Shown in pieces: positions 149 to 47,690 of a DNA stretch of 51,158 nt. Position numbers and translations under genes: made by a program. Within the stretch, counting starts at the first letter, position 1. Each line of letters begins with the position of its first letter. This stretch comes from a virus, in IMG/VR virus record IMGVR_UViG_3300019132_000034, positions 1-51,158 of that record; one strand, 5' to 3'. Below the pieces are notes generated by a model that was not told the origin of the DNA, did no database searches, and saw nothing but the letters and a program-made list of their open reading frames with translations.

Positions 149-1708
149 TCAGAATTTCGGGTATAATCGAATTGTAAAGTCTTTTGGATCAGTCGACTCG
201 AGGGAACGTCGATAAGTCACCTTTTCAAGCACGGATTTGAGAAGGTGATTTTTCTTTTCCGCATCATCTGTACATAAATAGGTATCAATCACGTATTCTA
301 CTTGTTTGACATAGGAGTGCAGGTCTTTGTTTAGGTTTTCTTTTTCCTTCTTCATTTGTTCTTCAATCGTGTAAATTTCTTGCTGCTTTTCACGAATCCG
401 GTCAGCTATACGCTGCTGGCGACTCATAAATGTATGAATATCATAGACTCCTTGTTCTAGTAAATCGTGAAGATTTTCCTTTTGTTTTTCAAGGCTTTGT
501 AATTCTTTTTGTTTTTCTTTGAGGATTCGCTCCCAATTTTGTGTGAGAGTTCGCTGTTGCTTTTTTTGTTTAGCAGCGATATTTAAGTGTTTTAATAGTT
601 CGCGCATTCCTTCAACCACCGCTTCTTCAACATACTCCATCTTTGCAGACTTTTGTACTTTGTTAGCCCGGCATTCCATCGAGATACAACGGTAATAACA
701 ATGTACCCCATGATTTCGCTTTCTTGCGTAATTCCGTTCCATCGTGTGGCCGCATACTTCACACTTTAATAATCCTGCTAAAGGATTGACAAGGCTTTTA
801 GTTTGATTTTTTGGCGGTCTGTAACGGTTTGACATAATCCGTTGGGCACTTTCAAATATCTCACGTGACACTAGCGGAGCATGAGCATCTTTAGCGACGA
901 TAAGGGCGTTTTTGTCGGTGTATGTACGGGAAGTCTTGCCGTTCCCTTTTTTAAGTACAGACTTACGATAAACAATATCTCCCGCATAGGCTTCTCGCTT
1001 CAGGATCTTCATGACGCCATTATCTGTCCATCTTGACCCTCCAGGAGAAGGGATATTCAGTTGATTCAGATGTTCAGAAATCTCCGCACGTAGTTTTCCT
1101 TGATTGACAAACATATCAAAAATGAGTTGCACAATCCACGCGGTGTTCTCATCGGGGACGAGTTTTAGATTCTTATCTTTTTTATACCCATAGGGTGGTT
1201 TTGTCCCAATAAATTTGCCTTCTCGAGCACTTTGGTTCCGACCCCGAATCAGTCTCTTATTGATTTGTTTTAACTCTTCTCGAGCAATCAAAGATTTGAT
1301 GCTGAACGTTAATTCTTGTGACTCGTCAGATGGATCAATGACTTCTAAAGGGGTAATGATGAGAGTCTCGGTGTATTTTAAAATACGGTAAATCGTTCCC
1401 TGATCAGCCATGTCTCCACGACCTAAACGATCCAAATCCATTACCAATACCGCATCAACCGGCTGATGCTGTAAATCTCGCAACATTTCTTGCATTTTGG
1501 GGCGCTGATCCAAGTACTCACCAGACACCACTTCTTCATAGACTCCGATAATCGTATGTTTTTCATCTTTGGCAAGGTTGAATAGTTGTTTCCGGTGCCG
1601 CTCTAATGTGTCAAAAGTCCTACCTTGTGTCGCTGCTTTTTGTTCTTCTTCAATATCACGTCGGCTTTTTCGAAGATAGATAAATACGTTTAATCCCTGT
1701 GGTCTCAT
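149..1708 (-). CDS. Large serine recombinase (phage integrase)
   Basis: The 519-aa ORF has an N-terminal resolvase-type catalytic region (IYLRKSRRD...VMDLDRLGR) and a recombinase domain. It also has a Cys-rich zinc ribbon (CEVCGH...CYYRC) and a long coiled-coil C-terminus. Confidence 0.9.
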   Translation of the reverse strand: MRPQGLNVFIYLRKSRRDIEEEQKAATQGRTFDTLERHRKQLFNLAKDEKHTIIGVYEEVVSGEYLDQRPKMQEMLRDLQHQPVDAVLVMDLDRLGRGDMADQGTIYRILKYTETLIITPLEVIDPSDESQELTFSIKSLIAREELKQINKRLIRGRNQSAREGKFIGTKPPYGYKKDKNLKLVPDENTAWIVQLIFDMFVNQGKLRAEISEHLNQLNIPSPGGSRWTDNGVMKILKREAYAGDIVYRKSVLKKGNGKTSRTYTDKNALIVAKDAHAPLVSREIFESAQRIMSNRYRPPKNQTKSLVNPLAGLLKCEVCGHTMERNYARKRNHGVHCYYRCISMECRANKVQKSAKMEYVEEAVVEGMRELLKHLNIAAKQKKQQRTLTQNWERILKEKQKELQSLEKQKENLHDLLEQGVYDIHTFMSRQQRIADRIREKQQEIYTIEEQMKKEKENLNKDLHSYVKQVEYVIDTYLCTDDAEKKNHLLKSVLEKVTYRRSLESTDPKDFTIRLYPKF

Positions 1709-7401: not shown

Positions 7402-8182
7402 GTTACAGATCGTTGGGACACGGGTTTGTGAAGGTTGTGGGAGTGAGGTCAACATCATCAAAACGGTATTCAGCGGTGAGGAACGGGAAATTAGTTATTG
7501 CTTGCGGTGCGAGGATAAAAAGATTCAAAAGGAGTGCAGTGATTACTACCAAGCGAGAGAGAAGCGCAAAGCGGAAATGATTTTTGAACGGTTTAGCTTT
7601 ATTTCTGATGATTTGAAGTACGCAAACTTTAGTAATTACATTCCCGATCATCCAAGCAAAGAGGAAGCTAAAAAGAAAGCGCAATGGTATGCAGAGAATT
7701 TCCCTCACATCTTGAACAGAGAATGGGATTGGCAGTCACTTCTCTTTCAAGGTAGCTACGGTTTAGGAAAATCTCACTTAGCATACAGCATTGCGCAGTA
7801 TGTAAAAAAACTCGGTTACGTTGTGATATTCCTAGATTCACCAAGTTTGCTGCGGGTTATACGCGAAAGTTACGACAAAGACAGTAAGTTTACGGAATCG
7901 GAAATCTTAGAAGCGTGTTACAATTCCGACTTATTGATATTAGATGACATAGGTGCAGAATATGTGAAAAGTGAAAACGGCTCCGAAAGTTGGGCGACTG
8001 ATAAATTGTTCCAAGTCATCTATTCGCGAATGGGAAAACCTACGATTTACACTACGAATTATACGGCGGATGAATTGGTGAAAAAATACGGTCAACATGG
8101 AGGTCGCATTGTTTCGCGGATGATGAAAGGAACAAAGGTTGTGAAGTTTGACGGGAAAGATTATCGCTTAAAAGGATTCTAA
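7370..8182 (+). CDS. DnaC/IstB-like AAA+ helicase loader
   Basis: Walker A (GSYGLGKSHL), Walker B (LLILDDIG) and an N-terminal Cys cluster. It follows the organiser gene. Confidence 0.8.
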   Translation: MQAVRTLISSRLQIVGTRVCEGCGSEVNIIKTVFSGEEREISYCLRCEDKKIQKECSDYYQAREKRKAEMIFERFSFISDDLKYANFSNYIPDHPSKEEAKKKAQWYAENFPHILNREWDWQSLLFQGSYGLGKSHLAYSIAQYVKKLGYVVIFLDSPSLLRVIRESYDKDSKFTESEILEACYNSDLLILDDIGAEYVKSENGSESWATDKLFQVIYSRMGKPTIYTTNYTADELVKKYGQHGGRIVSRMMKGTKVVKFDGKDYRLKGF

Positions 8183-8202
8183 CACGAAAGTAGGTGGCGT
8201 AG

Positions 8203-8376
8203 ATGTGCATGAAATGTAACGATACCGGTCGGGTATATACCGAAGTCATGAGGGGAGTGTATTCCTTCTCCCCTTGTACCTGCCATCATACTATGCAAGC
8301 AAGACAAGATTTAGAACAAGAACTTGCGGAAGTTCGAAAAAGGCTGGCGATGTTACGTGCTCAACAAACAGATTAA
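8203..8376 (+). CDS. Small Cys-rich protein (57 aa)
   Basis: CMKCNDTG...CTCHH motif, with RBS AGGTGG upstream. Confidence 0.45.
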   Translation: MCMKCNDTGRVYTEVMRGVYSFSPCTCHHTMQARQDLEQELAEVRKRLAMLRAQQTD

Positions 8377-8386
8377 TTTACTCAAT

Positions 8387-8611
8387 GTGGGACAATGGTT
8401 AACCTATATTGCGCTTGAAGATATGAATTTTCTTTGGTCGCATAACCAAGTCCGCGAATTTGATGAACTATGGAAGAGAGGGTATTCCATTCGTTATATA
8501 GCGGAATATTTTCACCGAAAACCGATAGAAGTTTTGCTTCTTGCGTTAGACCGAGCGGAAAAAGGGAAGATCGAGGAACGGAAAAACGGAATTTGGGGAG
8601 AAATAGACTGA
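8387..8611 (+). CDS. Hypothetical protein (start ambiguous: 8324, 8387 or 8423)
   Basis: Part of track ORF 8324-8611. An early start would overlap the preceding small ORF. Confidence 0.4.
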   Translation: MGQWLTYIALEDMNFLWSHNQVREFDELWKRGYSIRYIAEYFHRKPIEVLLLALDRAEKGKIEERKNGIWGEID

Positions 8612-8656
8612 GGTTTGTAGTAGACATATATAGCGTAACAAAGGAAGGGGATAGTC

Positions 8657-8809
8657 TTGTTTCTTAAGCAAATGAATGACCTAAAGAAAATAGCAAGAAA
8701 TATGAAGAAACAAGGGAAATCGGATGAACAAATTAAAAAAGCAATTAATTTATATCTTGTAACAAGCAAAAAGAAAATTAATCCTAATGGTGACTTAGAT
8801 GTAGTTTGA
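8657..8809 (+). CDS. Hypothetical small basic protein
   Basis: TTG start after AAGGAAGGGG. The ATG at 8672 is an alternative start. Confidence 0.3.
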   Translation: MFLKQMNDLKKIARNMKKQGKSDEQIKKAINLYLVTSKKKINPNGDLDVV

Positions 8810-8839
8810 TTAATACACAGTACGAAGATAAAACGCAAT

Positions 8840-9055
8840 ATGGGGGAGATGAACATGAAACGAGTGGGGAAAGTAATCGTTCTCCGTCCAAGGCAGCAGG
8901 ACAAATGGGATGTACTACGATACATTCAGCTAGCGGAAGGTAACGTCACGATGGAAGAACTGAATCAACATTTTGAAGATGTTTACGATGAGGAAATTGG
9001 TGAAGCAGTGATTGAATATCTCGCCGCTCGCCGTTCTCGAGTGGTGATTCAATGA
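8840..9055 (+). CDS. Hypothetical protein
   Basis: A 71-aa ORF. The internal ATG at 8855 has the better RBS (GGGGGAG). Confidence 0.5.
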   Translation: MGEMNMKRVGKVIVLRPRQQDKWDVLRYIQLAEGNVTMEELNQHFEDVYDEEIGEAVIEYLAARRSRVVIQ

Positions 9056-9597
9056 ATCTTTCAAAAGAATGGAATCCTGTACCGAAGCCGGTAAAAGAAC
9101 GAAAGGAAAAGCTACGCCCGAAGATACATGAGAAGCGTCCGAAGAAGAATCGAAAGAAGATAGAAGTATACAAGGGTCGTGTGATCCCGAAAGCAAAAGA
9201 CCGTACGAAAATCAGCAAGACCAACTACCACCGTATGATCGAGGAATTCGGATACCGCTGCTTGATTTGCGGAAAGACACCAATTGAAGCTCACCACATT
9301 GTTTTTCGTAGTCAGCTAGGTTCGGGGAATTGGAGAAACCTAGCACCTCTTTGTCAAATGCATCATAGAAAAGCCCACCAGGATAGAAACTTTGCTGAAT
9401 ACTTACGCCAGGAGCGAGCAGAACGATTTGGACCGCACTTTTGGAAAGACAAATATAGGCTCTTTAAAGAGGGATTGATTCTGAATACAACGGATTCGTC
9501 CTTTGAACAATTCATGAAGGAGGAAGAAAAACGTGGATTGGCTCGAATGGCAGAAAAAAGTGATAATCGAGGAATATGTGGAGGGGGAGAAAAATGA
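9052..9597 (+). CDS. HNH endonuclease with a Lys-rich N-terminus
   Basis: CLICGK...EAHHIVFRS...NLAPLCQMHHRKAH. Confidence 0.7.
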   Translation: MNLSKEWNPVPKPVKERKEKLRPKIHEKRPKKNRKKIEVYKGRVIPKAKDRTKISKTNYHRMIEEFGYRCLICGKTPIEAHHIVFRSQLGSGNWRNLAPLCQMHHRKAHQDRNFAEYLRQERAERFGPHFWKDKYRLFKEGLILNTTDSSFEQFMKEEEKRGLARMAEKSDNRGICGGGEK

Positions 9598-9713
9598 AAC
9601 GGTACGTAGTGGAGAAAACAACCAAAACGCCGGATGGAGAAAATCTAAAGGTCGTTGAGGTGCTGGATAGCAAACCAAAGAATTTTTCTTATATCGTGTT
9701 TATTGGAAAATAG
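9594..9713 (+). CDS. Hypothetical 39-aa protein
   Basis: ATGA overlap with the HNH gene. RBS GGGGGAGA. Confidence 0.35.
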   Translation: MKRYVVEKTTKTPDGENLKVVEVLDSKPKNFSYIVFIGK

Positions 9714-10511: not shown

Positions 10512-10690
10512 ACAAAGAGTATTGGCGTGGATTCCGTGACGGTCAGGAGCATGAGCGAAAGAAGGCGGCGCAGGTGTTGGCTTGCTACATAGAGTCATTG
10601 CGAGGCGTGAAGGGAATCGGCCCTGCGCTGTATCAAAGGATTGTGGAACATATCAATAAGGTGGATGTGAGAAAGGGGAAGGAAAAGTGA
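10508..10690 (+). CDS. Hypothetical protein
   Basis: In frame with track ORF 10466-10690. ATG 10508 is coupled to the upstream stop. Confidence 0.5.
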   Translation: MNKEYWRGFRDGQEHERKKAAQVLACYIESLRGVKGIGPALYQRIVEHINKVDVRKGKEK

Positions 10691-11013
10691 ATTTTAACGA
10701 ATATCAACAAGCAACTGATCGAACTTCTCCAGCATTTGATGATGAGATCGGTTGTATGGTCAATTTTGCAATGGGATTGAGTGGAGAAGCTGGGGAAATA
10801 ACTGATTACGTGAAAAAAGTGGTGTTTCAAGGTCATTCACTAGAAAAAGAAAGAATTGCTGAAGAACTAGGTGACTTACTTTGGTATGTTGCAAGAATGT
10901 CAAGTTTATTGGGATATGACTTAAGCAAAATCGCGCAAATGAACATTAAAAAACTCGAAAAGCGCTATCCAGAAGGTTTTAGTGTAGAAGCGAGCGTGAA
11001 CCGAAGCGAATGA
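10687..11013 (+). CDS. MazG-type nucleoside triphosphate pyrophosphohydrolase
   Basis: GLSGEAGEITDYVKK and EELGDLLWYV motifs. Length 108 aa. Confidence 0.8.
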   Translation: MNFNEYQQATDRTSPAFDDEIGCMVNFAMGLSGEAGEITDYVKKVVFQGHSLEKERIAEELGDLLWYVARMSSLLGYDLSKIAQMNIKKLEKRYPEGFSVEASVNRSE

Positions 11014-11966
11014 AAAACCACATCATCTTCTTTAGCGGAGGAAAATCGAGTTTTTCAGTGGCGGATTTTGTGAAAACGAATTATCCAAACGACAATATCG
11101 TTTTGTATTTCACCGATACGCTCTGGGAAGATGAGGATTTATATCGGTTCATTCATGAAGCGTCAGACAAACTCCAATTACCACTATTAACGCATAGTAT
11201 GGGCATCAATCCAATACAGTTAATGTTCCAGCAAAAAGTTTTGTTCAACAGTCGAATAGGGAACTGCTCCAAGATACTGAAAATGAAAGTGGCATCGGAT
11301 TTTCTAAAGAAAGGGAAAAAGCCAAAGATTGAAAAATGGTATAACAGGCAACATCTCAAGCAGGAAGATTTTATTTCACACGCAACTTTATACTTTGGAA
11401 TCAGCTTTGACGAAATGCATAGACAAGACGCCATCGTGAGGAATTGGCAACCATTTAGAGTAGAAATGCCGCTGATTGATAACATAGTAGATAATAACGA
11501 GATTTTACGGAAATACAACATCAGACAACCGAGACTATACGATTTAGGATTCTCTCATAACAACTGCAAAGGACGTTGCGTAAAAGCAGGACAAGGGCAT
11601 TTCCGTAATTTAAAGGAGAAAATGCCGCATGTGTTTCAAAAACTCATGGAACAAGAGCATCACATGAAAGTATATGTGTCCAGCTATCACTACATTAAGA
11701 GTTTGGATTTAGACGATGAGGTAAAAGAAATTTACCTATACGAACTAGATAAAGCCTATGAGGATTACTTCAATGGAAAAGCAGAAAAACCAAACCCATA
11801 CGTTCCTCCTAACTTGCATTTGAAACAATACAGCTTCATGAAAAAGAGTGGGAACGGAGAGGTAAGGCCTTATCCAATACGAGATTTACATTACGATGTA
11901 GAACGTGAGGGCACACAAATTGATCTGTTTGATATTGGCGGTTGTGGTTGTTTTGTAGAGTTTTAG
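11010..11966 (+). CDS. PP-loop ATPase of the PAPS-reductase-like family
   Basis: N-terminal IIFFSGGKSS PP-loop and a C-terminal Cys cluster (GGCGCF). Length 318 aa. Confidence 0.6.
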   Translation: MKNHIIFFSGGKSSFSVADFVKTNYPNDNIVLYFTDTLWEDEDLYRFIHEASDKLQLPLLTHSMGINPIQLMFQQKVLFNSRIGNCSKILKMKVASDFLKKGKKPKIEKWYNRQHLKQEDFISHATLYFGISFDEMHRQDAIVRNWQPFRVEMPLIDNIVDNNEILRKYNIRQPRLYDLGFSHNNCKGRCVKAGQGHFRNLKEKMPHVFQKLMEQEHHMKVYVSSYHYIKSLDLDDEVKEIYLYELDKAYEDYFNGKAEKPNPYVPPNLHLKQYSFMKKSGNGEVRPYPIRDLHYDVEREGTQIDLFDIGGCGCFVEF

Positions 11967-14424: not shown

Positions 14425-14644
14425 AAAGATGGGAGGTCCGTGTTTTTAGACCGGACCGAAAAAAAGCCAGAACTGTTCCCGGCGCTCGCTACATTAAGTA
14501 TATCACGGGAGGGGGCCAAGTGGTGAAGCAATTGTCATTTAACCTTCCTGAGATAGAAAGAGAAAAAACGAAAGAAGTGTTGAAGCTGCACTGGAGAAAT
14601 ATCGATTTTATCTCCTAACGGTTCCGGAGGAACGATTACCAAAA

Positions 14645-14965
14645 GTGGCAGCGACATATTCACTTGTTCCTCCTGCTCACAAAAATGCCTTTCATTCACC
14701 TACAGAAACAGCAGTGATTGACAAAGTGGATTTCGAACGAGAAAGAGATGAGTATATGGAATGGATTAGACGCAGCGTGAATCGCCTCAGTCCGAGGGAA
14801 CGAGAGTTAATCGTCAAGCGATACTTGAGTGATGAGGAAATGTATGATTATGAACTTTACAATGAGATGGGAATGTCTGGACGGCAGTACTACCGAACGA
14901 AGGCGAGAACATTATATAAACTTGCAGTAATTCTTCGTATAGAAGTTTACAAAAAGAAAGCGTAA
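14645..14965 (+). CDS. ArpU-family transcriptional regulator, paralogue 1
   Basis: Paralogous to 17633-18037 (VPPAH...DFERERDEYME...RYL..EE.YDYE.YN.MG). The expected N-terminus (LPEIEREK) lies in the -1-related frame from GTG 14523. Confidence 0.65.
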   Translation: MAATYSLVPPAHKNAFHSPTETAVIDKVDFERERDEYMEWIRRSVNRLSPRERELIVKRYLSDEEMYDYELYNEMGMSGRQYYRTKARTLYKLAVILRIEVYKKKA

Positions 14966-15268
14966 ATAAAAAATCTAAGGTACACATTCTTTAAAATGAA
15001 ATAGGTAATTTTCTCTTTTTTCTCAATCAAAATGGCCGTAAAATATGAAGTATCTAATTCATTTTTACATACCTGTTAAATTTAGTAATACTAACGGATT
15101 CAGTGGATTACCCAATAATACGAAATATGGGTATGGGTAATTAGAGAAAAATCTAAATAAACATTAGTTCCTAGTAGTTTAGTGAACCATTAAATAGTTA
15201 GTTGTATTACCATTCTGTGAGTATGTAGAGTGAAGTTTGGCGGGGGGAACTTTGGAAGGGGAGTGGCT

Positions 15269-16108
15269 ATGACCTTTAATCATAGAATAGTTCCGGGACA
15301 AATACTAGAGAATCATGAAATTGTTTCTATTTTTAAATGTGCTCCTCGGGGTGGGATGCGTCGGTCATTAAGGACTAATTCTCTTGTAATAGTATCGGAC
15401 CATACCGAATCTTTATACGAAGATCGCTGGGAAGATGATGTGTTTCATTACACTGGAATGGGAAGGACAGGAGACCAAAAGTTAGATTCCGGACAAAATA
15501 AGACATTAGCAGAGTCACGTGCCAATGGGGTAGACATTTATCTTTTTGAAGTGTTTCGGGAAAAAGAATATGTTTTCATAGGACAGGTTGAGTTGGCTGG
15601 TCAGCCATATCAAGAGGAGCAGTTGGATATAGAAAATAATTTAAGATTAGTTTGGGTTTTTCCATTAAGATTAAGAGGCAACACCAAACCATTTGAACTT
15701 CCCCAAGAGTGGATTGAAACAAAAAATAAATCCAGGGAGAAAAAGGCAAAGAAGTTGTCAGATGGGGAGTTAAAGGTAAGAGCAAGGCATACCAGCAAGA
15801 AAGCAGTTAAACGTGCGACTAGTAAGATCTCATATGAGCGAAATCCTTATGTCAGCGAGTATGCAAAAAGATGGGCAAACGGTATATGCCAACTTTGTGG
15901 TGAGGAAGCGCCATTTCGAGATAAAAATGGGACCCCGTATTTAGAGTCCCACCACATTGAATGGTTAGCGCGCGGTGGAGATGATACAATTGAGAATACA
16001 ATTGCCCTTTGTCCAAACTGTCATAAGAAGATGCATATACTCGATCGAAAAAGCGATGTAGAAAAGCTAAAAAATCGTGTTAGAGAGCATCTTCTGTCCT
16101 TAATGTAA
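15269..16108 (+). CDS. SRA/YDG-like reader domain fused to an HNH nuclease (putative type IV modification-dependent restriction enzyme)
   Basis: N-terminal SLVIVSDH..LYEDRWEDDVFHYTGMGRTGDQ...QNKTLAES resembles the SRA YEDD..YTG.GG pattern. C-terminal HNH is CQLCG...ESHHIEW...NTIALCPNCHKKMH. The ATG at 15269 has RBS GGAAGGGGA. Confidence 0.6.
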   Translation: MTFNHRIVPGQILENHEIVSIFKCAPRGGMRRSLRTNSLVIVSDHTESLYEDRWEDDVFHYTGMGRTGDQKLDSGQNKTLAESRANGVDIYLFEVFREKEYVFIGQVELAGQPYQEEQLDIENNLRLVWVFPLRLRGNTKPFELPQEWIETKNKSREKKAKKLSDGELKVRARHTSKKAVKRATSKISYERNPYVSEYAKRWANGICQLCGEEAPFRDKNGTPYLESHHIEWLARGGDDTIENTIALCPNCHKKMHILDRKSDVEKLKNRVREHLLSLM

Positions 16109-16136
16109 ATGTTCGTAATTAGGTGGTCGATCAATA

Positions 16137-16466
16137 ATGAAAGAATTGATTCAGAAAGTTGTCATGTTTCGAGATAAACGAAACTGGAAACAATTTCACA
16201 ATGCTAAAGATCTTGCAATATCTTTATCTATTGAGGCAAGTGAGCTTCTTGAAAATTTTCAGTGGAAGACAAGCGAGGAAGCTGTTAAGGAAAACTTAGA
16301 AGATATTAAAGATGAGGTTGCTGATGTTGTTATTTATGCAATGTTGCTTTCGAATGAATTAGATTTTAACTTAGAAGAAGTTATTGAGCAGAAAATAAAG
16401 AAAAATGAAGAAAAGTATCCGATTGAAAAGGCATACGGAAGTAATAAAAAGTACAACGAATTATAG
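16137..16466 (+). CDS. MazG-like all-alpha NTP pyrophosphatase (dCTPase/DCTPP1-like)
   Basis: EASELLENFQW and EVADVVIYAMLL metal-binding motifs. Length 109 aa. Confidence 0.7.
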   Translation: MKELIQKVVMFRDKRNWKQFHNAKDLAISLSIEASELLENFQWKTSEEAVKENLEDIKDEVADVVIYAMLLSNELDFNLEEVIEQKIKKNEEKYPIEKAYGSNKKYNEL

Positions 16467-16519
16467 GAATATGAGGGATTTACCTATATTTCGTTTTTCT
16501 AAGGACGGGTGATATTAGG

Positions 16520-17527
16520 ATGTTGTACTACTTTACTGCTAGCGACGATGATGCACAGAAACATTTCTATGATACTATTGAACAGCCGTGTAACATTGGA
16601 AAGTATATCTCTATGCTTGACTCTGCTACTGTAGATATTTTAAAGCAGAACAGTAAAGATAAATATGTACATATGTGGGGGGCAACACCAGGAAAATCTA
16701 ACCGAGATCGGTGGGATAAATTAAAATCTGGAGATAAAATATTGGCTTACTCTAAGGGAGTATTTCTGTATTACGGAACAATTTTCGCTAAAACACAAAA
16801 CCAGAGAGTTGCTGAGTTAATTTGGGGGACCAATAAAGAAGGGGAGACTTGGGAGTATATCTACTTTATTAAAGATCTCAGGAAGGTAGAAATTCCTGTA
16901 GAAAAATTTAACGCATTTTTTGATTATAAAATGAACTTTACCCCTCAAGGCTTTTCGAATATTGAAAAGAAAAGGTTTACTTTGAGATATGAAAAATACG
17001 GATCAATTGACAAAATAATTGAAGTTCTTGAAAGTCAATTTATTATCTCTGAAGAAGAAATAGAAGAGGATAATTATCAAATAAGTATTCAGTCTTCTTC
17101 ATTGAATAAGGTTAAGATTGAGGGGGGGATTAAACCTGAAAAACGTCCGAAACCAAGGAAAGAAAAGGGAAAGCAGGTATGGCCAAGGGATCCGAAAAAA
17201 GCTCAACAAGCGTTGAAGAGAGCTGAGTTTAAATGTGAGATTGATGAATCACATATAACGTTCATGAGTGAGGCAAGTAATGTCCCTTATATGGAAGCAC
17301 ATCATTTAATACCACTGAAAATGCAACATGAGTTTGAACAAAGCTTAGATGTGATCGGTAATATTGTTAGTTTATGTCCAAACTGTCATCGAATGATTCA
17401 CCATGCGAAACCTAGGGAAAAGAAGAAGTTATTAGAACAATTGTATCAGAAACGAAAATGTGAGTTAGAACAAAGTAGTTTAAATATTGATCTTGAATAT
17501 TTGTTGAGTGTATACGCAATAAAATAG
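16520..17527 (+). CDS. HNH nuclease with an N-terminal PUA/EVE-like putative reader domain
   Basis: C-terminal MEAHHLIPL...NIVSLCPNCHRMIHH. The N-terminal 150 aa (WGATPGKSN..W..LKSGDKILAY...WEYIYFI) is assigned only tentatively. Confidence 0.55.
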   Translation: MLYYFTASDDDAQKHFYDTIEQPCNIGKYISMLDSATVDILKQNSKDKYVHMWGATPGKSNRDRWDKLKSGDKILAYSKGVFLYYGTIFAKTQNQRVAELIWGTNKEGETWEYIYFIKDLRKVEIPVEKFNAFFDYKMNFTPQGFSNIEKKRFTLRYEKYGSIDKIIEVLESQFIISEEEIEEDNYQISIQSSSLNKVKIEGGIKPEKRPKPRKEKGKQVWPRDPKKAQQALKRAEFKCEIDESHITFMSEASNVPYMEAHHLIPLKMQHEFEQSLDVIGNIVSLCPNCHRMIHHAKPREKKKLLEQLYQKRKCELEQSSLNIDLEYLLSVYAIK

Positions 17528-17632
17528 CATCTTACCGGTTAATCGGGGCATACTGAAAGGGTTTTGGTGCTTGTTTGGTCAAATAGATGTTAAGATGAAA
17601 TAAACGGTTTGTTATTTACCTGAAGTTAACAG

Positions 17633-18037
17633 GTGGGGAGGAGAGTTGAATCTGCATTGGAGAAATATCGATTTTATCTCCTAACGGTTCCAGAGGAAAA
17701 GCTACCGAGGGTGGCAGTGGCATATTCATTTGTTCCTCCTGCTCACATCAATCGTTTTTATTCATCTACAGAAAGCGCGGCCATCCAAATAGCAGATTTT
17801 GAACGAGAACGCGATGAGTACATGGAGAGAATACGCCGCGTAGTGAATCGGCTCAATAAAACGGAGCGAGGATTGATTAGACGATATATGACGCTTGAAG
17901 AACCTTATGATTACGAGATCTACAACGACATGGGAATCAGTGAATCGAGGTTCTACCGCGTTCGCGAAAAGGCGTTCTACAAGCTGGCCTTTGCGTTGCG
18001 GATTGAGGTTTACAAAGAAGAAGAGGCACCTGTTTAG
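17633..18037 (+). CDS. ArpU-family transcriptional regulator, paralogue 2
   Basis: A 134-aa ORF with the ArpU-type pattern LEKYRFYLL...S.TE.A...DFERERDEYM...YRVREKAFYKLA. Confidence 0.7.
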   Translation: MGRRVESALEKYRFYLLTVPEEKLPRVAVAYSFVPPAHINRFYSSTESAAIQIADFERERDEYMERIRRVVNRLNKTERGLIRRYMTLEEPYDYEIYNDMGISESRFYRVREKAFYKLAFALRIEVYKEEEAPV

Positions 18038-18052
18038 GGTGCTTTATTATTT
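18026..18052 (+). terminator. Possible intrinsic terminator
   Basis: GCACC/GGTGC stem followed by a T-rich run. Confidence 0.4.
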
Positions 18053-18194: not shown

Positions 18195-18659
18195 ATGCCA
18201 ACGGTCTTCGAGGTCGCAAGATACTTTTTAAGTAAAAGCGTCCCAAATACTCCGTGGGCAATTACCCACCTAAAATTACAAAAATTAGCTTATTATGCAC
18301 AAGGTTGGTATCTAGCTTTTACTGGAAATGTTCTATTTAATGAAAGACTAGAGGCATGGGTTCATGGGCCTGTTAGTCCTGATCTTTTTCATAAATATAG
18401 GAGATTCGGACACAATGAAATACCACAAGAAGATTTCCCAGATAGTAGGTCCATTTTTACAAAAAAACAACTAGAGGTGCTCGATGCCGTATGGGAAGCA
18501 TATGGGGAATACAGTGGAAAGTTTTTAGAAGAATTAACCCACCAAGAACTTCCTTGGCTTGAAGCAAGATCAAATCTTGATTCCAATGATTATTCAAATG
18601 AAGTTATTTTGGTTGATACAATACGTTCATATTTTAGAAACCAGCTAGGAGACGAATAA
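18195..18659 (+). CDS. DUF4065 / Panacea-domain (GepA/SocA-like) antitoxin-like protein
   Basis: THLKLQKLAYYAQGWYLAF.G..LF.E..EAWVHGPV hallmark. Confidence 0.75.
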   Translation: MPTVFEVARYFLSKSVPNTPWAITHLKLQKLAYYAQGWYLAFTGNVLFNERLEAWVHGPVSPDLFHKYRRFGHNEIPQEDFPDSRSIFTKKQLEVLDAVWEAYGEYSGKFLEELTHQELPWLEARSNLDSNDYSNEVILVDTIRSYFRNQLGDE

Positions 18660-18679
18660 CCTTTTTCGTCTCTTAATTT

Positions 18680-20569
18680 GTGTTAAATGGAGGGAAAGCA
18701 TTGTATTTGGAAAGGGTAAGAGAGATTATCAGATGGGTTATTATTGTGCTCAAAAACCTACTAATTTTTTGTTTTAGACTCATTTTTTCTATTAGTCAAT
18801 TGTACGGACTCTTAGTCAGAAGAACGTTTGTTTTATTGATACTTTACGCAATTATTTATTATTTATTATTTTACAGGTTTTCTATTGCACAGTTTCAGGC
18901 AGATATTAATCAAGAAAATGAAATGTTTTTAGCAAAAATATTTAAGTATGTGCATATTTTTCAAGCGAATGATGAAGTAGTGATGCAAATTATCTCTTCC
19001 GGAACAAAGTTTTTAAGTGTTGTATTCTCTGTAATATTGACACTATTTATTTTTTCGCATAGGGAACAAAGAGCAATCGCACCTTCGTCAACTTACCGGT
19101 TTTATAAAAACTATATTTTTTTATTTTTTCTTTCATTATTAATGATAACTATGCCTTACGGGTTTCACTTATCACTTATCTATAAGTCTAGTTTACATAC
19201 ACAATATTCGGAATTGGGTATTACTATTACATACTTTGGACGATTTGTTACATGGATTATTCTCTTCTTATTTTCCATTGTGCTTATTGGATATACAATT
19301 GTTTCTTTATTTCGAACTATTAACATTAATTGGTTATTACCTGTAACTATTCAACAAGTAAGATCCACATTAATAAACCTGGAGGTTGTGTTGGATAACA
19401 GGTGGTTTAGGAAAACAAGAATAAATGAATACAATGAATTGAATTTTAATATTGAAAGTGTTTATCAAATGCTTGAATATGCTGCTGAAAATAATATGAG
19501 CAAAGACTATTATGATAATATAGAAAAACTACGAGAAACGTTCTCTATTCTAAAAAAGGAACATTTTTATTATAAATCATCATCAGTCTACGCAAGTTTT
19601 TATAATAGGGACCAAGAAGAGTTTAGATCTTTTCATAGGTCTGTCTTAAAAAATACCTTATCATTAGCTACTGCTCTATATAAAAATAATAAGTTTAACA
19701 AAGGACAGAAAGCATTGGACCTATTATTTTCTCTATACTCAGATAAAATTCCTCCCGTTTTGAGGCATGACTATATTGCGAGTATTTATGAGTTAATACA
19801 ATTAACTGATTTAAAAAATGGGGCAAAAGTTCGTGCAATTTTAAACGGTTTGGAAACAATGAAGACGGAATATACACTCATTTTGTATCAAGCTCTAATA
19901 CTTCGAATAATTAGTGAGAACAACATACAATTACTAACGTCAGTTGTTTACTCAATGAAAAAAAATATAGATAGGAATATAAAGCCTAATAACGGTGGAA
20001 TACCACGTATTGAGTTAATTATTAATAAAGCTTTAAAAAGAAAATATAAGCTGTTGAATATAGGGATACTTTTACAGTGTATGGTGAAAAGTATTGAGTT
20101 GTCTCATTACGCTTGTACAGGCTTTTTAATAAAATTTCTTGTTACAAACTTCAGTGGAAAATTGGTGAAGGAAGCTTTTAATGCTTTGTTGAATAATGGA
20201 ATGGTTTTTGGTACTATCTATCCCAACATGGGGGAGAACGTGCATTTAGACATTGATTACTACTTCAACGAAAAAACATACGATTATTGCTTAAAGAAAT
20301 TGTGTATTCTATTGTACGGGCAACAAAGGTATGCAGTAAGAAACGGTCTATCTTTTATTGAAGAATTTCATAAAGAGTCGTATGAATACATTGATATAGG
20401 ATCGGCATTCGTAGAGTGTGACTACAAAGAATATATATTTACTAAGGTATTGTCAGCAGGGAAAAAGTATGGATTTCTTTATCTAAAGGATAAGGAATTC
20501 TTAAGAGATCTTGCTAAGGATTTTGGTGTTCAAACATTATTGATGGAGGAGTTGCTTCCTGACCTTTAA
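18680..20569 (+). CDS. Large polytopic membrane protein of unknown function (candidate toxin/effector partner of the Panacea protein)
   Basis: About 6 hydrophobic helices in the first ~215 aa, then an alpha-helical soluble region of about 400 aa. The gene is AT-rich. The likely true start is TTG 18701, after GGAGGG. Confidence 0.6.
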   Translation: MLNGGKALYLERVREIIRWVIIVLKNLLIFCFRLIFSISQLYGLLVRRTFVLLILYAIIYYLLFYRFSIAQFQADINQENEMFLAKIFKYVHIFQANDEVVMQIISSGTKFLSVVFSVILTLFIFSHREQRAIAPSSTYRFYKNYIFLFFLSLLMITMPYGFHLSLIYKSSLHTQYSELGITITYFGRFVTWIILFLFSIVLIGYTIVSLFRTININWLLPVTIQQVRSTLINLEVVLDNRWFRKTRINEYNELNFNIESVYQMLEYAAENNMSKDYYDNIEKLRETFSILKKEHFYYKSSSVYASFYNRDQEEFRSFHRSVLKNTLSLATALYKNNKFNKGQKALDLLFSLYSDKIPPVLRHDYIASIYELIQLTDLKNGAKVRAILNGLETMKTEYTLILYQALILRIISENNIQLLTSVVYSMKKNIDRNIKPNNGGIPRIELIINKALKRKYKLLNIGILLQCMVKSIELSHYACTGFLIKFLVTNFSGKLVKEAFNALLNNGMVFGTIYPNMGENVHLDIDYYFNEKTYDYCLKKLCILLYGQQRYAVRNGLSFIEEFHKESYEYIDIGSAFVECDYKEYIFTKVLSAGKKYGFLYLKDKEFLRDLAKDFGVQTLLMEELLPDL

Positions 20570-20632: not shown

Positions 20633-20670
20633 TGACAGAAAACTGAAGGAAAAATGACGGAAAGATGACA
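20633..20670. promoter_or_regulatory. Three phased TGAC(A/G) boxes upstream of RNA element B
   Basis: Boxes at 20633, 20655 and 20666, a spacing of 22 and 11 nt. Confidence 0.3.
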
Positions 20671-20722
20671 GATTATTTTGGTTTAGACGTGTTATGATGG
20701 TATCGTGGATCTTTTGTTGAAG

Positions 20723-20835
20723 TAGCTATTCTCAAAGCCTGTCACTAGAACTAGCGAGTCCGAATCTCGTTTGTGTGGAAAGCAGGCGGGAGCGAGTTCC
20801 GACAAGCGTCACCCGATCAGGTGGCGTTTTTATTT
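20723..20835 (+). ncRNA. Structured RNA-like element B (paralogue of 13790-13902), ending in an intrinsic terminator
   Basis: Same conserved blocks as copy A. The central stem CTCGTTTG/CAGGCGGG and the terminator stem CGTCACC/GGTGGCG differ in sequence from copy A but still pair. Confidence 0.5.
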
Positions 20836-22797: not shown

Positions 22798-23691
22798 GTG
22801 GCTAGGCAAAGAGATCCTAAACGAGATGAAGCTTTTGAAATATGGAAAAATAGCGGAGGAACTAAAAAATTAAACGAGATTGCCGAGGAGCTCGGAGTAA
22901 GTCCAGGAACGGTTCGTGGTTGGAAAAATAAAGATGCCTGGGAAGAAAAATTAAACGGAACGTTCCAAAAAAAGAAACGGAGCGCTCTTGTAAATGAAAC
23001 GGAACGTTCCAAACCTAAAAGGGGAGCGCCGCTAGGAAATAAAAATGCTTTAGGTAACAAAGGAGGGGCTCCGCCTGGTAATAAAAACGCAGTAGGTAAT
23101 AAAGGTGGAGCCGCTCCTCTGAGAAATGCTAATGCGGTGAAAACCGGTGAGTTCAGGAGTCTGTGGTATGACATATTAGATGAAGATGAAAAGCAATTGG
23201 TGAATCAAATTGAGGTTGTCGAACCGATTCAACAAGTGATTGATGAAATTAAATTGTACTCTTTCCGGGAAGCGTTCATTATGAAACGGATTAAGGCACT
23301 CAAAGAAGGGATGACCTCCGCTCAAAAACGGGTGTTAAAACAACTAAAAAAAGTGAAGGACAAAGTGAAGGTAGATGATCCGAATAGCAGCGAAGGCTAC
23401 CGCATAATCGAAAAGGAAGATTATAAGTTGATGGAGACGGAAATTGAGGAGATTTCCGCAGATCCGGTGGAACAAGTTTTAGCCCACGAGGAAGCCCTTA
23501 CTCGAGTTCAAGATAAAAAGGTTAAGGCTTTGGATTTGCTGTTTCGTATGACAGATGAGTTTAATCATAAAAAGTTGATGGATGAAATTAAAACAACCAT
23601 CCTGCAAGAGAAATGGGACAAAGAGAAAAAAGGAAATGAGGATGACAAACCGATTGAAATCATCATTAAACGAAAAGGTGATGATGGATGA
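22798..23691 (+). CDS. terS: Terminase small subunit
   Basis: N-terminal HTH ([22 protein letters not shown]) and repeated GAPxGNKNAxGNKGG motifs. It lies directly upstream of terL. Confidence 0.8.
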
Positions 23692-24977
23692 CTGTAAAAG
23701 AAGTGAATCCTCATTTTGAAGAATTTTTGTTTAATTGGAAACATAAGTTTTATTTCCTTGTAGGGGGGTATGGTTCATCCAAAAGTTATCATATTGCGCT
23801 TAAAATTGTGCTGAAGTTGTTAGAGGAAAAGCGAACCGCTCTTGTGGTTCGTGAAGTTTACGACACCATACGCGACTCCTGCTATTCCTTATTTGAAGAA
23901 ATCGTAATTGATTTGGGGCTAGACAATCGAATTAAGTTTACTTCCTCCCCAATGATGGTCCGTTTTCCGAACGGTTCCAAAATCATTTTTAAGGGGATGG
24001 ATAAACCCGCTAAACTCAAATCCATTCACAATGTATCGATTATATGGATCGAAGAGTGTTCAGAGGTCAAATACGACGGGTTTAAAGAGTTGTTGGGGCG
24101 CTTGCGTCATCCAACGTTACAGCTGCACATGATTCTTTCTACTAACCCGGTAAGCAAAAGCAACTGGTGTTATAAATTCTTTTTTAAAGACGAAAAGAAC
24201 AAGTATTTTGTGTTGGATGATGAGGAGTTATATCGAAAGCGGAAGATGGTAATCAAAAACACCTATTACCATCACTCAACCGCTGATGATAATTTATTTT
24301 TGCCTCAAGACTATATTGAACAGCTAGAAGAATTGAAAACCCATGATCCAGACCTCTACCGAATCGCGAGAAAAGGTCGATTTGGTGTAAATGGTACATT
24401 GGTATTCCCGCAGTTTGAAGTAATGGCGCATGAGGAAGTCATGAAGCACATTCAATCGATTAAAAATCCAATTAAACGGGCGGGAATGGACTTTGGTTTT
24501 GAAGATTCATATAATGCGTTGCTGCGGGTAGCGGTGGACCATGATGAAAAGATTCTATATATCTATTGGGAGTATTACAAAAACAAAATGACGGATGACC
24601 GGACAGCGGAAGAAATTATGGAGTTTAAGGAAAAGAGGGAACTGATTAAAGCAGATAGCGCGGAACCAAAAACAATTCAATATTTTAGACAACGAGGGTT
24701 CCGTATGGTAGCGGCTAAGAAGTTCCAGGGCTCAAGGCTCCAATATACAAAGAAAATTAAACGATTCAAACGGATTATATGCTCTGACGCGTGTCCGAAT
24801 ACTATTGATGAGTTAAAGGAACTGACTTATAAAATGGACAAAGATGGGAATATCATCGAGGATGAATTCAATATCGACCCACATACTTTGAGTGCCATAT
24901 GGTATGCGCTTGATGATTATGAGGTTTCCGACCTAAAAGGAAGTTATCAGGCACGTGCTGTTCCGTCTCTATATTAA
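23688..24977 (+). CDS. terL: Terminase large subunit (PBSX family)
   Basis: Walker A (VGGYGSSKS), Walker B (IIWIEE) and a C-terminal nuclease region. Length 429 aa. Confidence 0.9.
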
Positions 24978-43429: not shown

Positions 43430-43485
43430 GCTGCTTGGTTAAACCAAGCGGCTTTTACTTTGTAATGACGAAGGAGGTATATCAT

Positions 43486-44484
43486 ATGGGGTACTTATTT
43501 GAGAAACTTCCGCAACTTATAGATATGCGAGGAAAACTCCCAAAAAAAGGGCAGTATTCCATGCGAAACGGTGGAATCAAAGCGATTAGAACGAGGGTAT
43601 GGCATCATTCTCTAACAAAATTGAACTTAAAGGGCTCTAACGTAGAAGCATTTGCAAATTATCATGTAGGGACACATGGGTGGCCGGAAATTGGGTATAC
43701 CTTTGTGATTGATCCCAATAAAGTCGTAGACAATCGTGCTGCCATTTATTATTGCGTGGATATTGCTAAAAAATCCTATCATGTGGGAAATAGCAATAAC
43801 TTCTCGTTAGGTATTTGTGTGATTGGGGATTATCGATACGACCAACTATCTGAACCCGCTATGCGTTCGGTATCAGAATTACATGCCGCTCTTGTAGCCG
43901 ATGGAATTGGCCAAGAAGATAAATCCCATCATGAAATGCCGGGATATAGTTGGAAAGAATGTTGTGTTTATAACTACCGAAAAGCCATCCAATGGAAGGG
44001 GAACGTTACTCCATCTGCACCGACACCACTTCCGAACACCTATGTCATTCAGGAGGGGGATACATTCTGGAGTATTGCGAACAGAGATGGAGTTGGTGGG
44101 ATAACGGTAGAGGATTTGATTGCCGCTAATCCTGGAGTAGATCCTAGAAACCTTAAGGTCGGTCAGAGCATCAATCTAGGAAAGGCAAAACATGTGTTTA
44201 CCCGTAATCCGGAGGAACCGAAAAAGCCGCAGTCCTCCTATCGTTTCCCTTTACCGAGCGGGGTTTTACGAAAAGGAGACCGGGGGGATAAGGTTAAACA
44301 ACTTCAGAGAGCGCTCGATACTGTTCACTTCCGCCCAGGAACAATTGATGGAATATATGGTTCAAAGACTGAGGATGCGGTCAAACGATTCCAATCGGTA
44401 TATATACCGTATCAAGTAGATGGCATTTATGGACCGAAAACAGCGGAAAAGCTAAAAGCGGTGCTAAAATCAAAAGGTTATTAG
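43486..44484 (+). CDS. Endolysin: N-acetylmuramoyl-L-alanine amidase plus LysM and PG_binding_1 domains
   Basis: Amidase_2 motifs (WHHSLT...YHVG.HGWPEIGYTFVI...YHVGNSNNFSLGICV), LysM (YVIQEGDTFWSIA) and PG-binding repeats (DGIYGSKTEDAVKRFQ). RBS GAAGGAGG. Confidence 0.9.
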   Translation: MGYLFEKLPQLIDMRGKLPKKGQYSMRNGGIKAIRTRVWHHSLTKLNLKGSNVEAFANYHVGTHGWPEIGYTFVIDPNKVVDNRAAIYYCVDIAKKSYHVGNSNNFSLGICVIGDYRYDQLSEPAMRSVSELHAALVADGIGQEDKSHHEMPGYSWKECCVYNYRKAIQWKGNVTPSAPTPLPNTYVIQEGDTFWSIANRDGVGGITVEDLIAANPGVDPRNLKVGQSINLGKAKHVFTRNPEEPKKPQSSYRFPLPSGVLRKGDRGDKVKQLQRALDTVHFRPGTIDGIYGSKTEDAVKRFQSVYIPYQVDGIYGPKTAEKLKAVLKSKGY

Positions 44485-45343: not shown

Positions 45344-46615
45344 ATGAAACATACCAAAGTCATGCGGTACCAAATTGTTAAACCACTTGATACAGAATGG
45401 TCGACATTCGGAACGGTTCTTCGAGAAATACAGAAGGAAACCCGCGTTGCACTTAATAAAACGATTCAGTTATGTTGGGAATATCAAGGATTTAGTGCGG
45501 ACTATAAGTTTATACATGGGAAGTATCCTAGAAAAATGGATGTTCTAAGATACACAAGTATGCACGGCTATGCCTATAAGCGTTTGAAACCTGAGTTTAC
45601 CAAAATTGCGTCTGGCAATCTTGCACAAACTATAAAGAGAGCGGTAGACAAATGGAACAGCGATGTAAAAGAAATCTCGCGTGGGGAACGTTCTATACCA
45701 AGTTTCAAAAAAGATTGCCCAATCGATGTTGTGAAAAAGTCTATGAAACTAAAGAAATCCGGTGATGGTTATATCCTTAGCCTAAGCTTAATAAACAGAG
45801 AGTATACTAGTGAATTAGGGCGGAAAAATGGTGTATTTGATGTTTTTATAAGGGCTAATGATAAATCCCAACAAACAATTCTAGACCGAATATTAGAAGG
45901 AGAATACATCTTTACGGCGTCCCAAATTCTGAATCATAAAAACAAATGGTTTATTAATCTCACTTATCAATTTGAATCACAAGAAGTTACCTTGGATCCT
46001 AACAATGTGATGGGAGTAGATTTAGGGATTGTCTATCCGGTTTATATCGCATTCAATAATAGCCTACATCGATACCACATTAAAGGTGGAGAAATCGAGC
46101 GATTCAGACAACAGGTGGAAAAACGAAAAAAGGAATTATTGGAGCAAGGGAAATACTGTGGTGATGGACGAAAAGGACATGGGTATGCAACGAGGACCAA
46201 ATCTGTTGCATCCATTCGTGATAAAATTGCAAGGTTCCGTAATACCTGCAATCACAAGTATTCACGGTTCATCATCGACATGGCTATCAAACATAAATGT
46301 GGTACAATTCAAATGGAGGATTTAACAGGGATCAGTCAAGAAAGTACTTTTTTAAAGAACTGGCCATACTATGATCTTCAACAAAAAATTGAATATAAGG
46401 CAAAAGAAGCGGGGATACAAATCATTAAGGTAGATCCAAGCTATACTTCGCAGCGTTGTAGCAAGTGTGGTAATATTAATAGGAAAAATAGACAAGAGCA
46501 ATCCGTCTTTCTATGCGGGAAATGTGGTTTTGAAACCAATGCGGATTACAATGCATCGAGAAACATTGCAATACCTCGAATCGATCAAATCATTAAGGAA
46601 ACATTAGCAAAATAA
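45344..46615 (+). CDS. cas12f: Cas12f-like (type V-F, TnpB-derived) miniature RNA-guided nuclease
   Basis: RuvC-I (VMGVDLGIV), RuvC-II (GTIQMEDLTG), a CSKCG...CGKCG zinc ribbon and RuvC-III (ETNADYNASRNIA). The N-terminus YQIVKPLD..W..FGT.LR..Q.ETR.ALNK matches the AsCas12f1 sequence as I remember it. A CRISPR array lies 290 nt downstream. Confidence 0.8.
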   Translation: MKHTKVMRYQIVKPLDTEWSTFGTVLREIQKETRVALNKTIQLCWEYQGFSADYKFIHGKYPRKMDVLRYTSMHGYAYKRLKPEFTKIASGNLAQTIKRAVDKWNSDVKEISRGERSIPSFKKDCPIDVVKKSMKLKKSGDGYILSLSLINREYTSELGRKNGVFDVFIRANDKSQQTILDRILEGEYIFTASQILNHKNKWFINLTYQFESQEVTLDPNNVMGVDLGIVYPVYIAFNNSLHRYHIKGGEIERFRQQVEKRKKELLEQGKYCGDGRKGHGYATRTKSVASIRDKIARFRNTCNHKYSRFIIDMAIKHKCGTIQMEDLTGISQESTFLKNWPYYDLQQKIEYKAKEAGIQIIKVDPSYTSQRCSKCGNINRKNRQEQSVFLCGKCGFETNADYNASRNIAIPRIDQIIKETLAK

Positions 46616-47561: not shown

Positions 47562-47690
47562 GATGAACACTCCTTGTATTTGGTAATCATGGATATATAT
47601 TACTATATTATCCTGTTAATTTCTACAAGTATTTTAGGGTATAAGTTTAGTCCGTTTTGTCTATCCTAACGATGAAAAGGAGTGGAGAAG

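Follow-up and report, generated by a model that had tools for sequence, protein, structure and literature searches.

The DNA analyzed here, a 51,158-nucleotide stretch of viral sequence (IMG/VR record IMGVR_UViG_3300019132_000034, positions 1 to 51,158; hereafter, the window), carries a three-gene cassette at 15269-17527 that encodes an SRA-HNH nuclease (P1), a MazG-like pyrophosphatase (P2), and a PUA-HNH nuclease (P3). Comparison with related loci showed that the conserved unit within this cassette is a pair, the MazG-like gene followed by the PUA-nuclease gene, and not the trio. The data partly support a picture of type IV restriction equipped with a dedicated, co-evolving deoxynucleoside triphosphate (dNTP) pyrophosphatase partner, with a further type IV enzyme stacked alongside it in a mobile prophage cassette. 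While the components are familiar, the pairing of MazG-like and PUA-nuclease genes has been noted in passing and is essentially unstudied.

The window is a prophage of the Geobacillus/Parageobacillus type, and the cassette lies between its early/replication and late modules. All three open reading frames are on the + strand, with P1 at 15269-16108 (279 residues from its ATG), P2 at 16137-16466 (109 residues), and P3 at 16520-17527 (335 residues), separated by 28 nucleotides (P1 to P2) and 53 nucleotides (P2 to P3). Shine-Dalgarno-like motifs precede P2 (AGGTGG) and P3 (GGTGAT). An upstream GTG at 15230 would extend P1 to 292 residues; the database copy, P0001, has the 279-residue form. An initial annotation had described three tightly spaced genes in this arrangement and had quoted the motifs LYEDRWEDDVFHYTGMGRTGDQ...QNKTLAES from P1 and EASELLENFQW and EVADVVIYAML from P2; the open reading frames, the spacing, and the motifs were all confirmed, the last verbatim.

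Single-protein scans recovered two full-length loci for P3 among genome contigs and one locus for MazG among viral contigs, and alignments were therefore used as queries. With the P3 family alignment, the viral-contig search yielded 37 loci containing the N-terminal reader domain of P3, and in 31 of these a MazG gene stands immediately upstream of the PUA gene, at a distance of a few to about 75 nucleotides, encoding a protein 56-71% identical to P2. This adjacency is independent of the C-terminus of the PUA protein, which can be a McrA-like HNH domain or an "AHIKKR...CxFGCD" nuclease domain (HNH_2-like/Group-23-like) that Pfam does not recognize, one distant member scoring as HNH_2. Approached from the MazG side, viral contigs have a PUA gene 3-34 nucleotides downstream in 45 of 64 loci, two distant pairs at 34-39% identity included; among loci whose MazG is at least 54% identical, the figure is 43 of 45. 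The two genes also diverge together: pairwise identities of MazG and PUA-nuclease genes are correlated with a Mantel r of 0.89, a value reached in 0 of 2000 permutations. When PUA-nucleases were clustered at 70% identity, a MazG gene was present in 13 of the 21 clusters.

Recombination and fusion give the same impression of a linked pair. Homology between the window and locus L002 ends exactly at the MazG stop codon, after which L002 continues with a PUA-family gene other than that of the window. In two proteins the domains are joined outright, as MazG-PUA in P0372 (295 residues; L239:3926-4813) and in the opposite order, PUA-MazG, in a 318-residue protein (L288:1243-2199). Both fusions are without a nuclease domain, and no HAD-type neighbor of either was evident among the neighboring open reading frames. 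The pair is common in prophages of the Bacillus cereus group type and of other Bacillales. The initial annotation had treated the trio as the unit whose neighborhood should be conserved, and here the result was divided, with co-conservation holding for the pair and failing for the trio: of the 43 viral-contig loci with an SRA-HNH homologue, 42 have it standing alone, the exception being L193, where a PUA-nuclease lies directly upstream.

In the case of P3, the nuclease half is readily recognized. A linker and the C-terminal McrA-like HNH domain occupy 17015-17527 (+ strand), with the Pfam core at approximately 17285-17404; the domain matches PF01844 (E value 9e-7) and EcoKMcrA (6ghc, E value 7e-12), and C239, E259, H261, H262, N281, C286, H290, and H294 are invariant in 35 homologues. 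The N-terminal 165 residues (16520-17014, + strand) have no Pfam match, including to the EVE model PF01878, which is matched by only 5 of 115 reader relatives, plus P0154. In the AlphaFold2 model of P3 (predicted local distance difference test score, pLDDT, 91.9), the best Foldseek match for the whole chain is the EVE-HNH enzyme VcaM4I (2.5e-6), and the best domain-level match for the reader is the N-terminal domain of T. gammatolerans McrB (TgMcrB-N; 6p0g/6p0f) at a template modeling (TM) score of 0.66-0.68, with PH1033, MJECL36, YTH, ASCH, and EVE proteins as further matches. A profile of the P3-reader family compared with PDB sequences likewise gave TgMcrB-N (6p0f/6p0g) as its sole significant match, with an E value of 0.007. 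The tentative PUA/EVE-like assignment in the initial annotation was thus right at the level of the superfamily, and the family is YTH/EVE-like, of the TgMcrB-N type.

The company this reader keeps is informative. A profile search of a word-indexed protein database with the reader alignment returned 12 proteins, and an exhaustive search of representatives was used instead: phmmer with the P3 reader against 1.84 billion representatives gave 1418 clusters, 619 of them below 1e-10. Fusions were counted in the best 115 relatives longer than the reader domain alone, and these carry McrB-type AAA_5 (24), HNH_2 (19), HNH (17), NOV_C (5), NucS_C (3), and SRA (2) domains, as well as Mrr_N and a PD-(D/E)XK domain. 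An Archaeoglobus provirus has the reader on the McrB subunit of an McrBC pair, with an McrB homologue match at an E value of 1e-41. Fusion to McrB-type motors and to nucleases argues that the reader is a type IV specificity module. P3 also matches the PADLOC mREase_IV model, and as a PUA(YTH-like)-HNH protein it has the architecture of type IV modification-dependent enzymes; going by sequence and modeled fold, it would be expected to cut modified DNA.

P2 matches the MazG-like family PF12643 at 78.6 bits (cutoff, 27) and, among PDB sequences, an Archaeoglobus pyrophosphatase (4qgp, E value 2e-20) and DCTPP1 (6sqw, E value 1e-12). Its pocket was mapped by aligning P2 with DCTPP1 and taking residue roles from PMC13291643. 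The metal/ribose ligands E63, E66, E95, and D98 of DCTPP1 are E33, E36, E60, and D63 in P2, and eight of nine pocket residues are kept, with F41, W47, F50, H51, W73, I101, Y102, and Y129 of DCTPP1 appearing as F11, W17, F20, H21, W43, I66, Y67, and Y94; His38 alone is lost, replaced by V8. H21 corresponds to His51, the cytosine N3 filter of DCTPP1 (PMC13291643). Across 11 paired P2 homologues, the four acidic ligands, F11, W17, H21, and Y94 are invariant, F20, W43, and Y67 are nearly so (at least 90%), and I66 is variable. These residues support the earlier placement of P2 on the DCTPP1 branch, and its substrate is probably DCTPP1-like and of the pyrimidine type. We also considered whether P2 is simply the ordinary MazG of the phage and rejected this, as a second, canonical MazG (PF03819, 108 residues) is already present in the early region at 10687-11013, which makes P2 an extra gene tied to the cassette.

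In P1, the HNH domain (core at approximately 15887-16036) matches PF01844 (Pfam E value 7e-11) and resembles EcoKMcrA (6ghc, E value 2e-19), and the alignment with EcoKMcrA retains HH...N...CPNCH, residues that are invariant in 34 P1 homologues. The SRA reader spans approximately residues 10-135. Precomputed Pfam records list both PF26348 (SRA_ScoMcrA) and PF01844 for the identical database copy of P1 and for all listed homologues, and the AlphaFold2 model (pLDDT 89.4) is matched in Foldseek by ScoMcrA (7e-13), TagI (8e-9), and the SRA domains of SUVH5 and UHRF1/2 (TM score 0.66-0.68), bearing out the SRA-like N-terminus that had been proposed from sequence. P1 matches PADLOC mREase_IV (E value 1e-20) and belongs to a family of 3405 clusters. 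We predict that P1 is an SRA-HNH modification-dependent (type IV) endonuclease, and both nucleases have the type IV-like architecture first attributed to them, with an SRA or PUA-superfamily reader ahead of a McrA-like HNH domain. As SRA enzymes characterized to date read 5-methylcytosine (5mC) or 5-hydroxymethylcytosine (5hmC) (PMC6765204, PMC6212794), the base read by P1 is, by analogy, likely one of these two.

Stacking of several reader-nucleases around the pair is recurrent, and its order and content vary. Orthologous versions of the trio were seen in only four places, the window, L001, L002, and L230. L001 has the gene order of the window with MazG deleted; in L002 the window sequence is matched at 81.5% identity across the leader, P1, and MazG, after which another PUA-nuclease takes over; and in L230, a prophage of Bacillus sp. 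FJAT-52991, the order is DUF1643-MazG-PUA-HNH-SRA-HNH, and the window proteins are matched there at 67%, 57%, and 56% identity. L231 has MazG followed by two PUA-nucleases, and Bacillus cereus-type loci have a divergent 214-residue McrA-like HNH gene upstream of the pair, beside a Septu-like PDC-M62 system. Defense neighbors in other loci include Septu-like PDC-M62, GmrSD, and further McrA-like HNH genes.

Similar stacks can be built from other nucleases. A cluster beside the integrase of the Vibrio prophage 10N.286.55.A5_PE003 (L227; PQ189364.1 1885-4214) consists of a pair of McrA-like HNH genes (362- and 274-residue proteins) and, after them, an overlapping MazG-like gene. In hhalign comparisons with the P1 and P3 alignments, the HNH part alone of the Vibrio proteins was matched. 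The metagenomic viral contig L169 has the order HNH-MazG-HNH, and the 274-residue Vibrio protein aligns along its entire length, at 38% identity, with the L169 HNH protein upstream of MazG. Beyond the Vibrio MazG-like gene lie RiboL-PSP-HEPN and type II restriction endonuclease genes on the other strand. In other loci, MrcB_N-HNH, HNH_2, GIY-YIG-helicase, or SNF2-methylase genes share a start/stop overlap with a MazG-like gene; in L118, L162, L170, L173, L174, and L228 the overlap is between PUA-less MazG-like genes and helicase genes, either Schlafen-group-3 (DUF2075-type) helicases, some with GIY-YIG, or SNF2-helicase/N6_N4-methylase fusions. A DUF1643 gene abuts the PUA-nuclease gene in L082 (5434-5934), in the place of MazG, and lies just upstream of MazG in L230 (5102-5617); DUF1643, which may be UDG-like, has no PDB sequence match and is listed by PHROGs as of unknown function, and a literature search for it gave nothing informative.

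We lean, by a modest degree, toward reading the cassette as a stack of type IV restriction enzymes in which the DCTPP1-like MazG is a dedicated accessory of the PUA-nuclease that hydrolyzes modified dNTPs. In each nuclease, the reader would flip a modified base out of DNA entering the cell, and the McrA-like HNH domain would make its cut close by. P2 would hydrolyze the matching modified dNTP to the deoxynucleoside monophosphate (dNMP) and pyrophosphate, keeping the modified base from random incorporation into the resident chromosome and prophage, where the neighboring nucleases would find targets. Such sanitizing is the role proposed for DCTPP1 itself, which would act on 5-methyl-dCTP to keep methylated dCTP out of DNA (PMC13291643). 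The same activity could also starve phages whose DNA is polymerized from modified dNTPs. Destruction of the phage dNTP pool, the role first suggested for P2, is therefore one of at least two equally compatible functions, protection of resident DNA being the other, and the dispensability of MazG described below fits both.

Several observations weigh against this reading. On metagenome contigs, MazG-like loci at 47-69% identity have a PUA partner in only 3 of 65 cases, which indicates that the MazG-like family is mostly stand-alone and that the PUA-paired genes are a recruited subset; the generalization that a close homologue of P2 will nearly always have its partner, true of viral contigs, fails in metagenomes and was discarded. 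MazG is absent from 8 of the 21 PUA-nuclease clusters, and in L001 it has been destroyed by a frameshifting internal deletion of 178 bp while both nuclease open reading frames remain intact at 80-86% identity, showing that the partner is dispensable. These same facts led us to reject MazG as an essential antitoxin in a toxin-antitoxin-like arrangement. The nuclease-less PUA/MazG fusions suggest that PUA may act as a regulator of the pyrophosphatase itself. Promoter-like matches in the window are no commoner than in shuffled sequence.

The bases involved present a further difficulty for the same reading. Of the solved relatives of the P3 reader, the closest, TgMcrB-N, reportedly targets N6-methyladenine (6mA) DNA rather than 5mC (PMC7680126, PMC7544203), whereas the P2 pocket looks cytosine-type, and the P2 and P3 arms may address different bases. 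In addition, C5 cytosine methyltransferase genes lie within a few kilobases of P3 homologues in three unrelated loci (L043:4627-5439, L236:5966-8422, and L237:7370-8506), which is awkward for a P3 family directed at 5mC in general. The PUA domain of P3 would be a reader of either 6mA or modified cytosine, and the hypermodified cytosine that the initial annotation named as the target of the second arm is not established.

One possibility is that the PUA and MazG proteins form a sensor-effector complex of the abortive-infection type, in which PUA binds a free modified nucleotide, instead of or besides DNA, and controls both HNH and MazG. MazG could then make or destroy the dNMP ligand, and a survey of the nucleotide pool would end with DNA being cut and dNTPs hydrolyzed. 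In favor of such a complex are the nuclease-less fusions of PUA with MazG in both orders and the tight spacing and correlated divergence of the two genes, and there is a precedent in PUA-Cal-HAD, which senses m6-dAMP through a PUA-like pocket, depletes dNTPs, and has rare variants with MazG-like effectors (PMC12871103). We nevertheless think this explanation unlikely. P3 has the full architecture of stand-alone DNA-reading enzymes like VcaM4I, and its reader family is typically found on McrB motors and nucleases; PUA-nucleases occur without MazG, in the 8 clusters and in L001 after its loss; and the PUA-Cal motifs VWWGWWxKxxE and TPxYY are missing from the window reader, which has no HAD or calcineurin-like partner nearby. 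A still more speculative form, to which we give rather little credence, would make MazG plus PUA a nucleotide-pool surveillance device in which a modified free nucleotide, rather than modified DNA, triggers immunity. MazG would turn a phage-made or damage-derived modified dNTP into a dNMP sensed by PUA, or would remove the ligand, and PUA would switch on the attached HNH domain or, in the fusion proteins, the pyrophosphatase.

It could also be that the three genes are coincident cargo, independent accessory genes gathered at a recombination hotspot between the replication and late modules, with P2 an ordinary phage or house-cleaning pyrophosphatase. The cassette does lie in a low-G+C accessory island that also holds a SocA/Panacea pair and genes of unknown function, its duplicated ArpU borders point to modular recombination, SRA-HNH genes are nearly always solitary in viral loci, and MazG-like genes are overwhelmingly stand-alone in metagenomes. 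We nevertheless consider this explanation very doubtful, because MazG is directly upstream in 31 of 37 loci, in prophages with differing backbones and whichever of two nuclease domains the PUA protein has, the MazG and PUA domains are fused in two proteins, and the recombination breakpoint that separates the window from L002 keeps the pair. The canonical MazG already present in the prophage early region and the recurrence of the MazG-plus-HNH theme in Vibrio and other viral contigs with non-orthologous nucleases argue in the same direction. The counts obtained here already point to an enrichment of MazG-like genes beside reader-nucleases.

Phages commonly carry HNH genes close to terminase genes, and MazG genes as well, and PHROGs lists both nuclease families (P1 and the P3 N-terminal domain) only as of unknown function, but a self-serving or offensive role, with the HNH proteins as homing or packaging nucleases or attackers of host DNA and MazG reprogramming nucleotide or alarmone pools for replication, is highly improbable given that in L002 a small HNH protein of the packaging type has a gene of its own (93 residues, beside Terminase_4), that P1 and P3 have modified-base readers and resemble McrA, TagI, and VcaM4I rather than homing enzymes, and that P1/P3-type genes are also found outside obvious prophages, beside restriction-type genes.

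The cassette is positioned in an accessory or defense hotspot of the prophage. G+C content falls from about 0.40-0.44 to 0.34-0.38 over the cassette and to 0.29-0.35 immediately downstream. The right border is a full-length ArpU-family late regulator (17633-18037, + strand; TIGR01637, E value 3e-30), and the left border is an N-terminally truncated or decaying copy (14573-14965, + strand) that matches the TIGR01637 phage_arpU profile (E value 2e-30) at positions 37-136 only, in a frame that is open from 14552 with no start codon before 14645. The two bracketing genes are 77% identical at the nucleotide level, and the upstream copy has the look of a degenerating duplicate that modular recombination left behind. 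The right ArpU gene accompanies the cassette in L001, where window positions 16381-18051 are collinear with 7911-9604 at 78%. An AT-rich leader (15005-15268, + strand) before P1 also travels with it, as homology with L002 (81.5% at the nucleotide level) runs from 15005 to the MazG stop codon. A promoter-like match at 15064-15092 in this leader is no better than chance, and an Rfam search of the window gave no match.

Downstream of the cassette, where the G+C content of the window is at its lowest (0.29-0.32), a SocA/Panacea antitoxin-like gene (154 residues) is followed after 20 nucleotides by a gene for a 629-residue transmembrane-rich protein, the two spanning 18195-20569. The larger protein has no Pfam, PADLOC, or PHROG match, and the two genes may be a Panacea-type toxin-antitoxin pair; at the equivalent place, L230 has a SocA_Panacea gene with a 359-residue partner. 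Noncoding sequence at 20635-20725 is 82-84% identical in L001 and L002, though the genes around it differ, and a terminator-like hairpin without an Rfam match lies at 20804-20829.

The rest of the window is laid out as a prophage. A large serine recombinase is encoded at 149-1708 (- strand), and the early and replication module holds, among others, ERF, ThyX, SSB, and a DnaC-like gene. A separate HNH gene (181 residues) lies at 9052-9597, and the canonical MazG gene overlaps the start of a PAPS-reductase-like gene (318 residues; two-gene span 10687-11966). Late genes include the terminase small and large subunits (22798-24977), an SPP1-type portal, and an amidase endolysin (43435-44484). Past the lysis module are a TnpB gene with a Cas12f1-like TNB domain (45344-46615) and an Mrr_cat restriction endonuclease gene (47682-48296), followed by an FtsK/SpoIIIE-type gene (49274-50575).

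Type IV restriction enzymes are regarded as systems of one protein each, and their main liability is self-damage when modified bases enter host DNA. If the sanitizing role is correct, a dedicated dNTP pyrophosphatase would be a built-in safeguard against this liability, a bacterial counterpart of the role of mammalian DCTPP1; alternatively, the pyrophosphatase would be a second, pool-directed arm of defense. Either reading describes a testable two-gene module absent from PADLOC, where neither P2 nor the PUA-"Group 23" nuclease has a model. The analysis also places in the type IV toolbox a reader family that is large, with about 1400 clusters at 50% identity, and is of "unknown function" in PHROGs, and it suggests that stacked readers of different specificity broaden superinfection exclusion mediated by prophages. 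Should a free nucleotide prove to be the trigger, proteins resembling type IV restriction enzymes would gain a new input logic.

The trio had been put forward as previously undescribed, and this holds in that we found no functional study of the MazG/PUA-nuclease pair in the literature; MazG-adjacent HNH-like proteins and PUA/MazG combinations had, on the other hand, been noted (PMC5714182, PMC12871103). Jablonska et al. (2017; PMC5714182) devoted one paragraph to His-Me finger Group 23, unannotated HNH-like proteins without a Pfam model that stand beside MazG genes, which they linked to MazEF without recognizing the N-terminal reader. The 324-331-residue relatives in L002 and L083, which have no Pfam match and lie beside MazG, fit this group as compared by description only, whereas P3 of the window has a canonical PF01844 HNH domain and so is not Group 23 itself. 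A 2026 preprint (PMC12871103) reported PUA-like domains with HNH or McrB fusions and rare systems of PUA, MazG-like, and HAD proteins. Like PUA-Cal-HAD from that work, the cassette combines a PUA-like domain with a nucleotide-hydrolyzing enzyme, but its reader has HMWGATPG and TWEYIYF in place of VWWGWWxKxxE and TPxYY, the PUA domain is on a nuclease and not a phosphoesterase, and no calcineurin-like or HAD component is found in or around the cassette.

SRA-HNH and PUA-HNH proteins are recognized type IV families, and enzymes of the DCTPP1 type are recognized sanitizers. Among characterized enzymes, P1 has the same domain order, SRA fold, and McrA-like HNH domain as the SRA-HNH type IV enzymes TagI, ScoA3IV/Sco5333, TbiR51I, and the SRA-HNH part of ScoMcrA, differing in being encoded by a prophage with a MazG-like gene 28 nucleotides after it. 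P3, like the VcaM4I/TspA15I EVE-HNH group (Lutz et al. 2019, PMC6765204; PMC7897488), joins an N-terminal PUA-type reader to a C-terminal HNH domain, yet its identity to VcaM4I is approximately 9-10%, and its reader is missed by the Pfam EVE model and belongs to the YTH-like TgMcrB-N family. To TgMcrB-N it is related by both profile and fold, and 24 of 115 relatives carry the McrB-type AAA_5 domain, but in P3 the reader sits on an HNH nuclease, not a GTPase motor. P2, finally, shares with DCTPP1/RS21-C6 the four acidic ligands and eight of nine base-pocket residues, including the Trp-Trp sandwich and His51, while differing as a minimal 109-residue bacterial/phage protein in which His38 has given way to a hydrophobic residue and whose gene is coupled to that of a nuclease.

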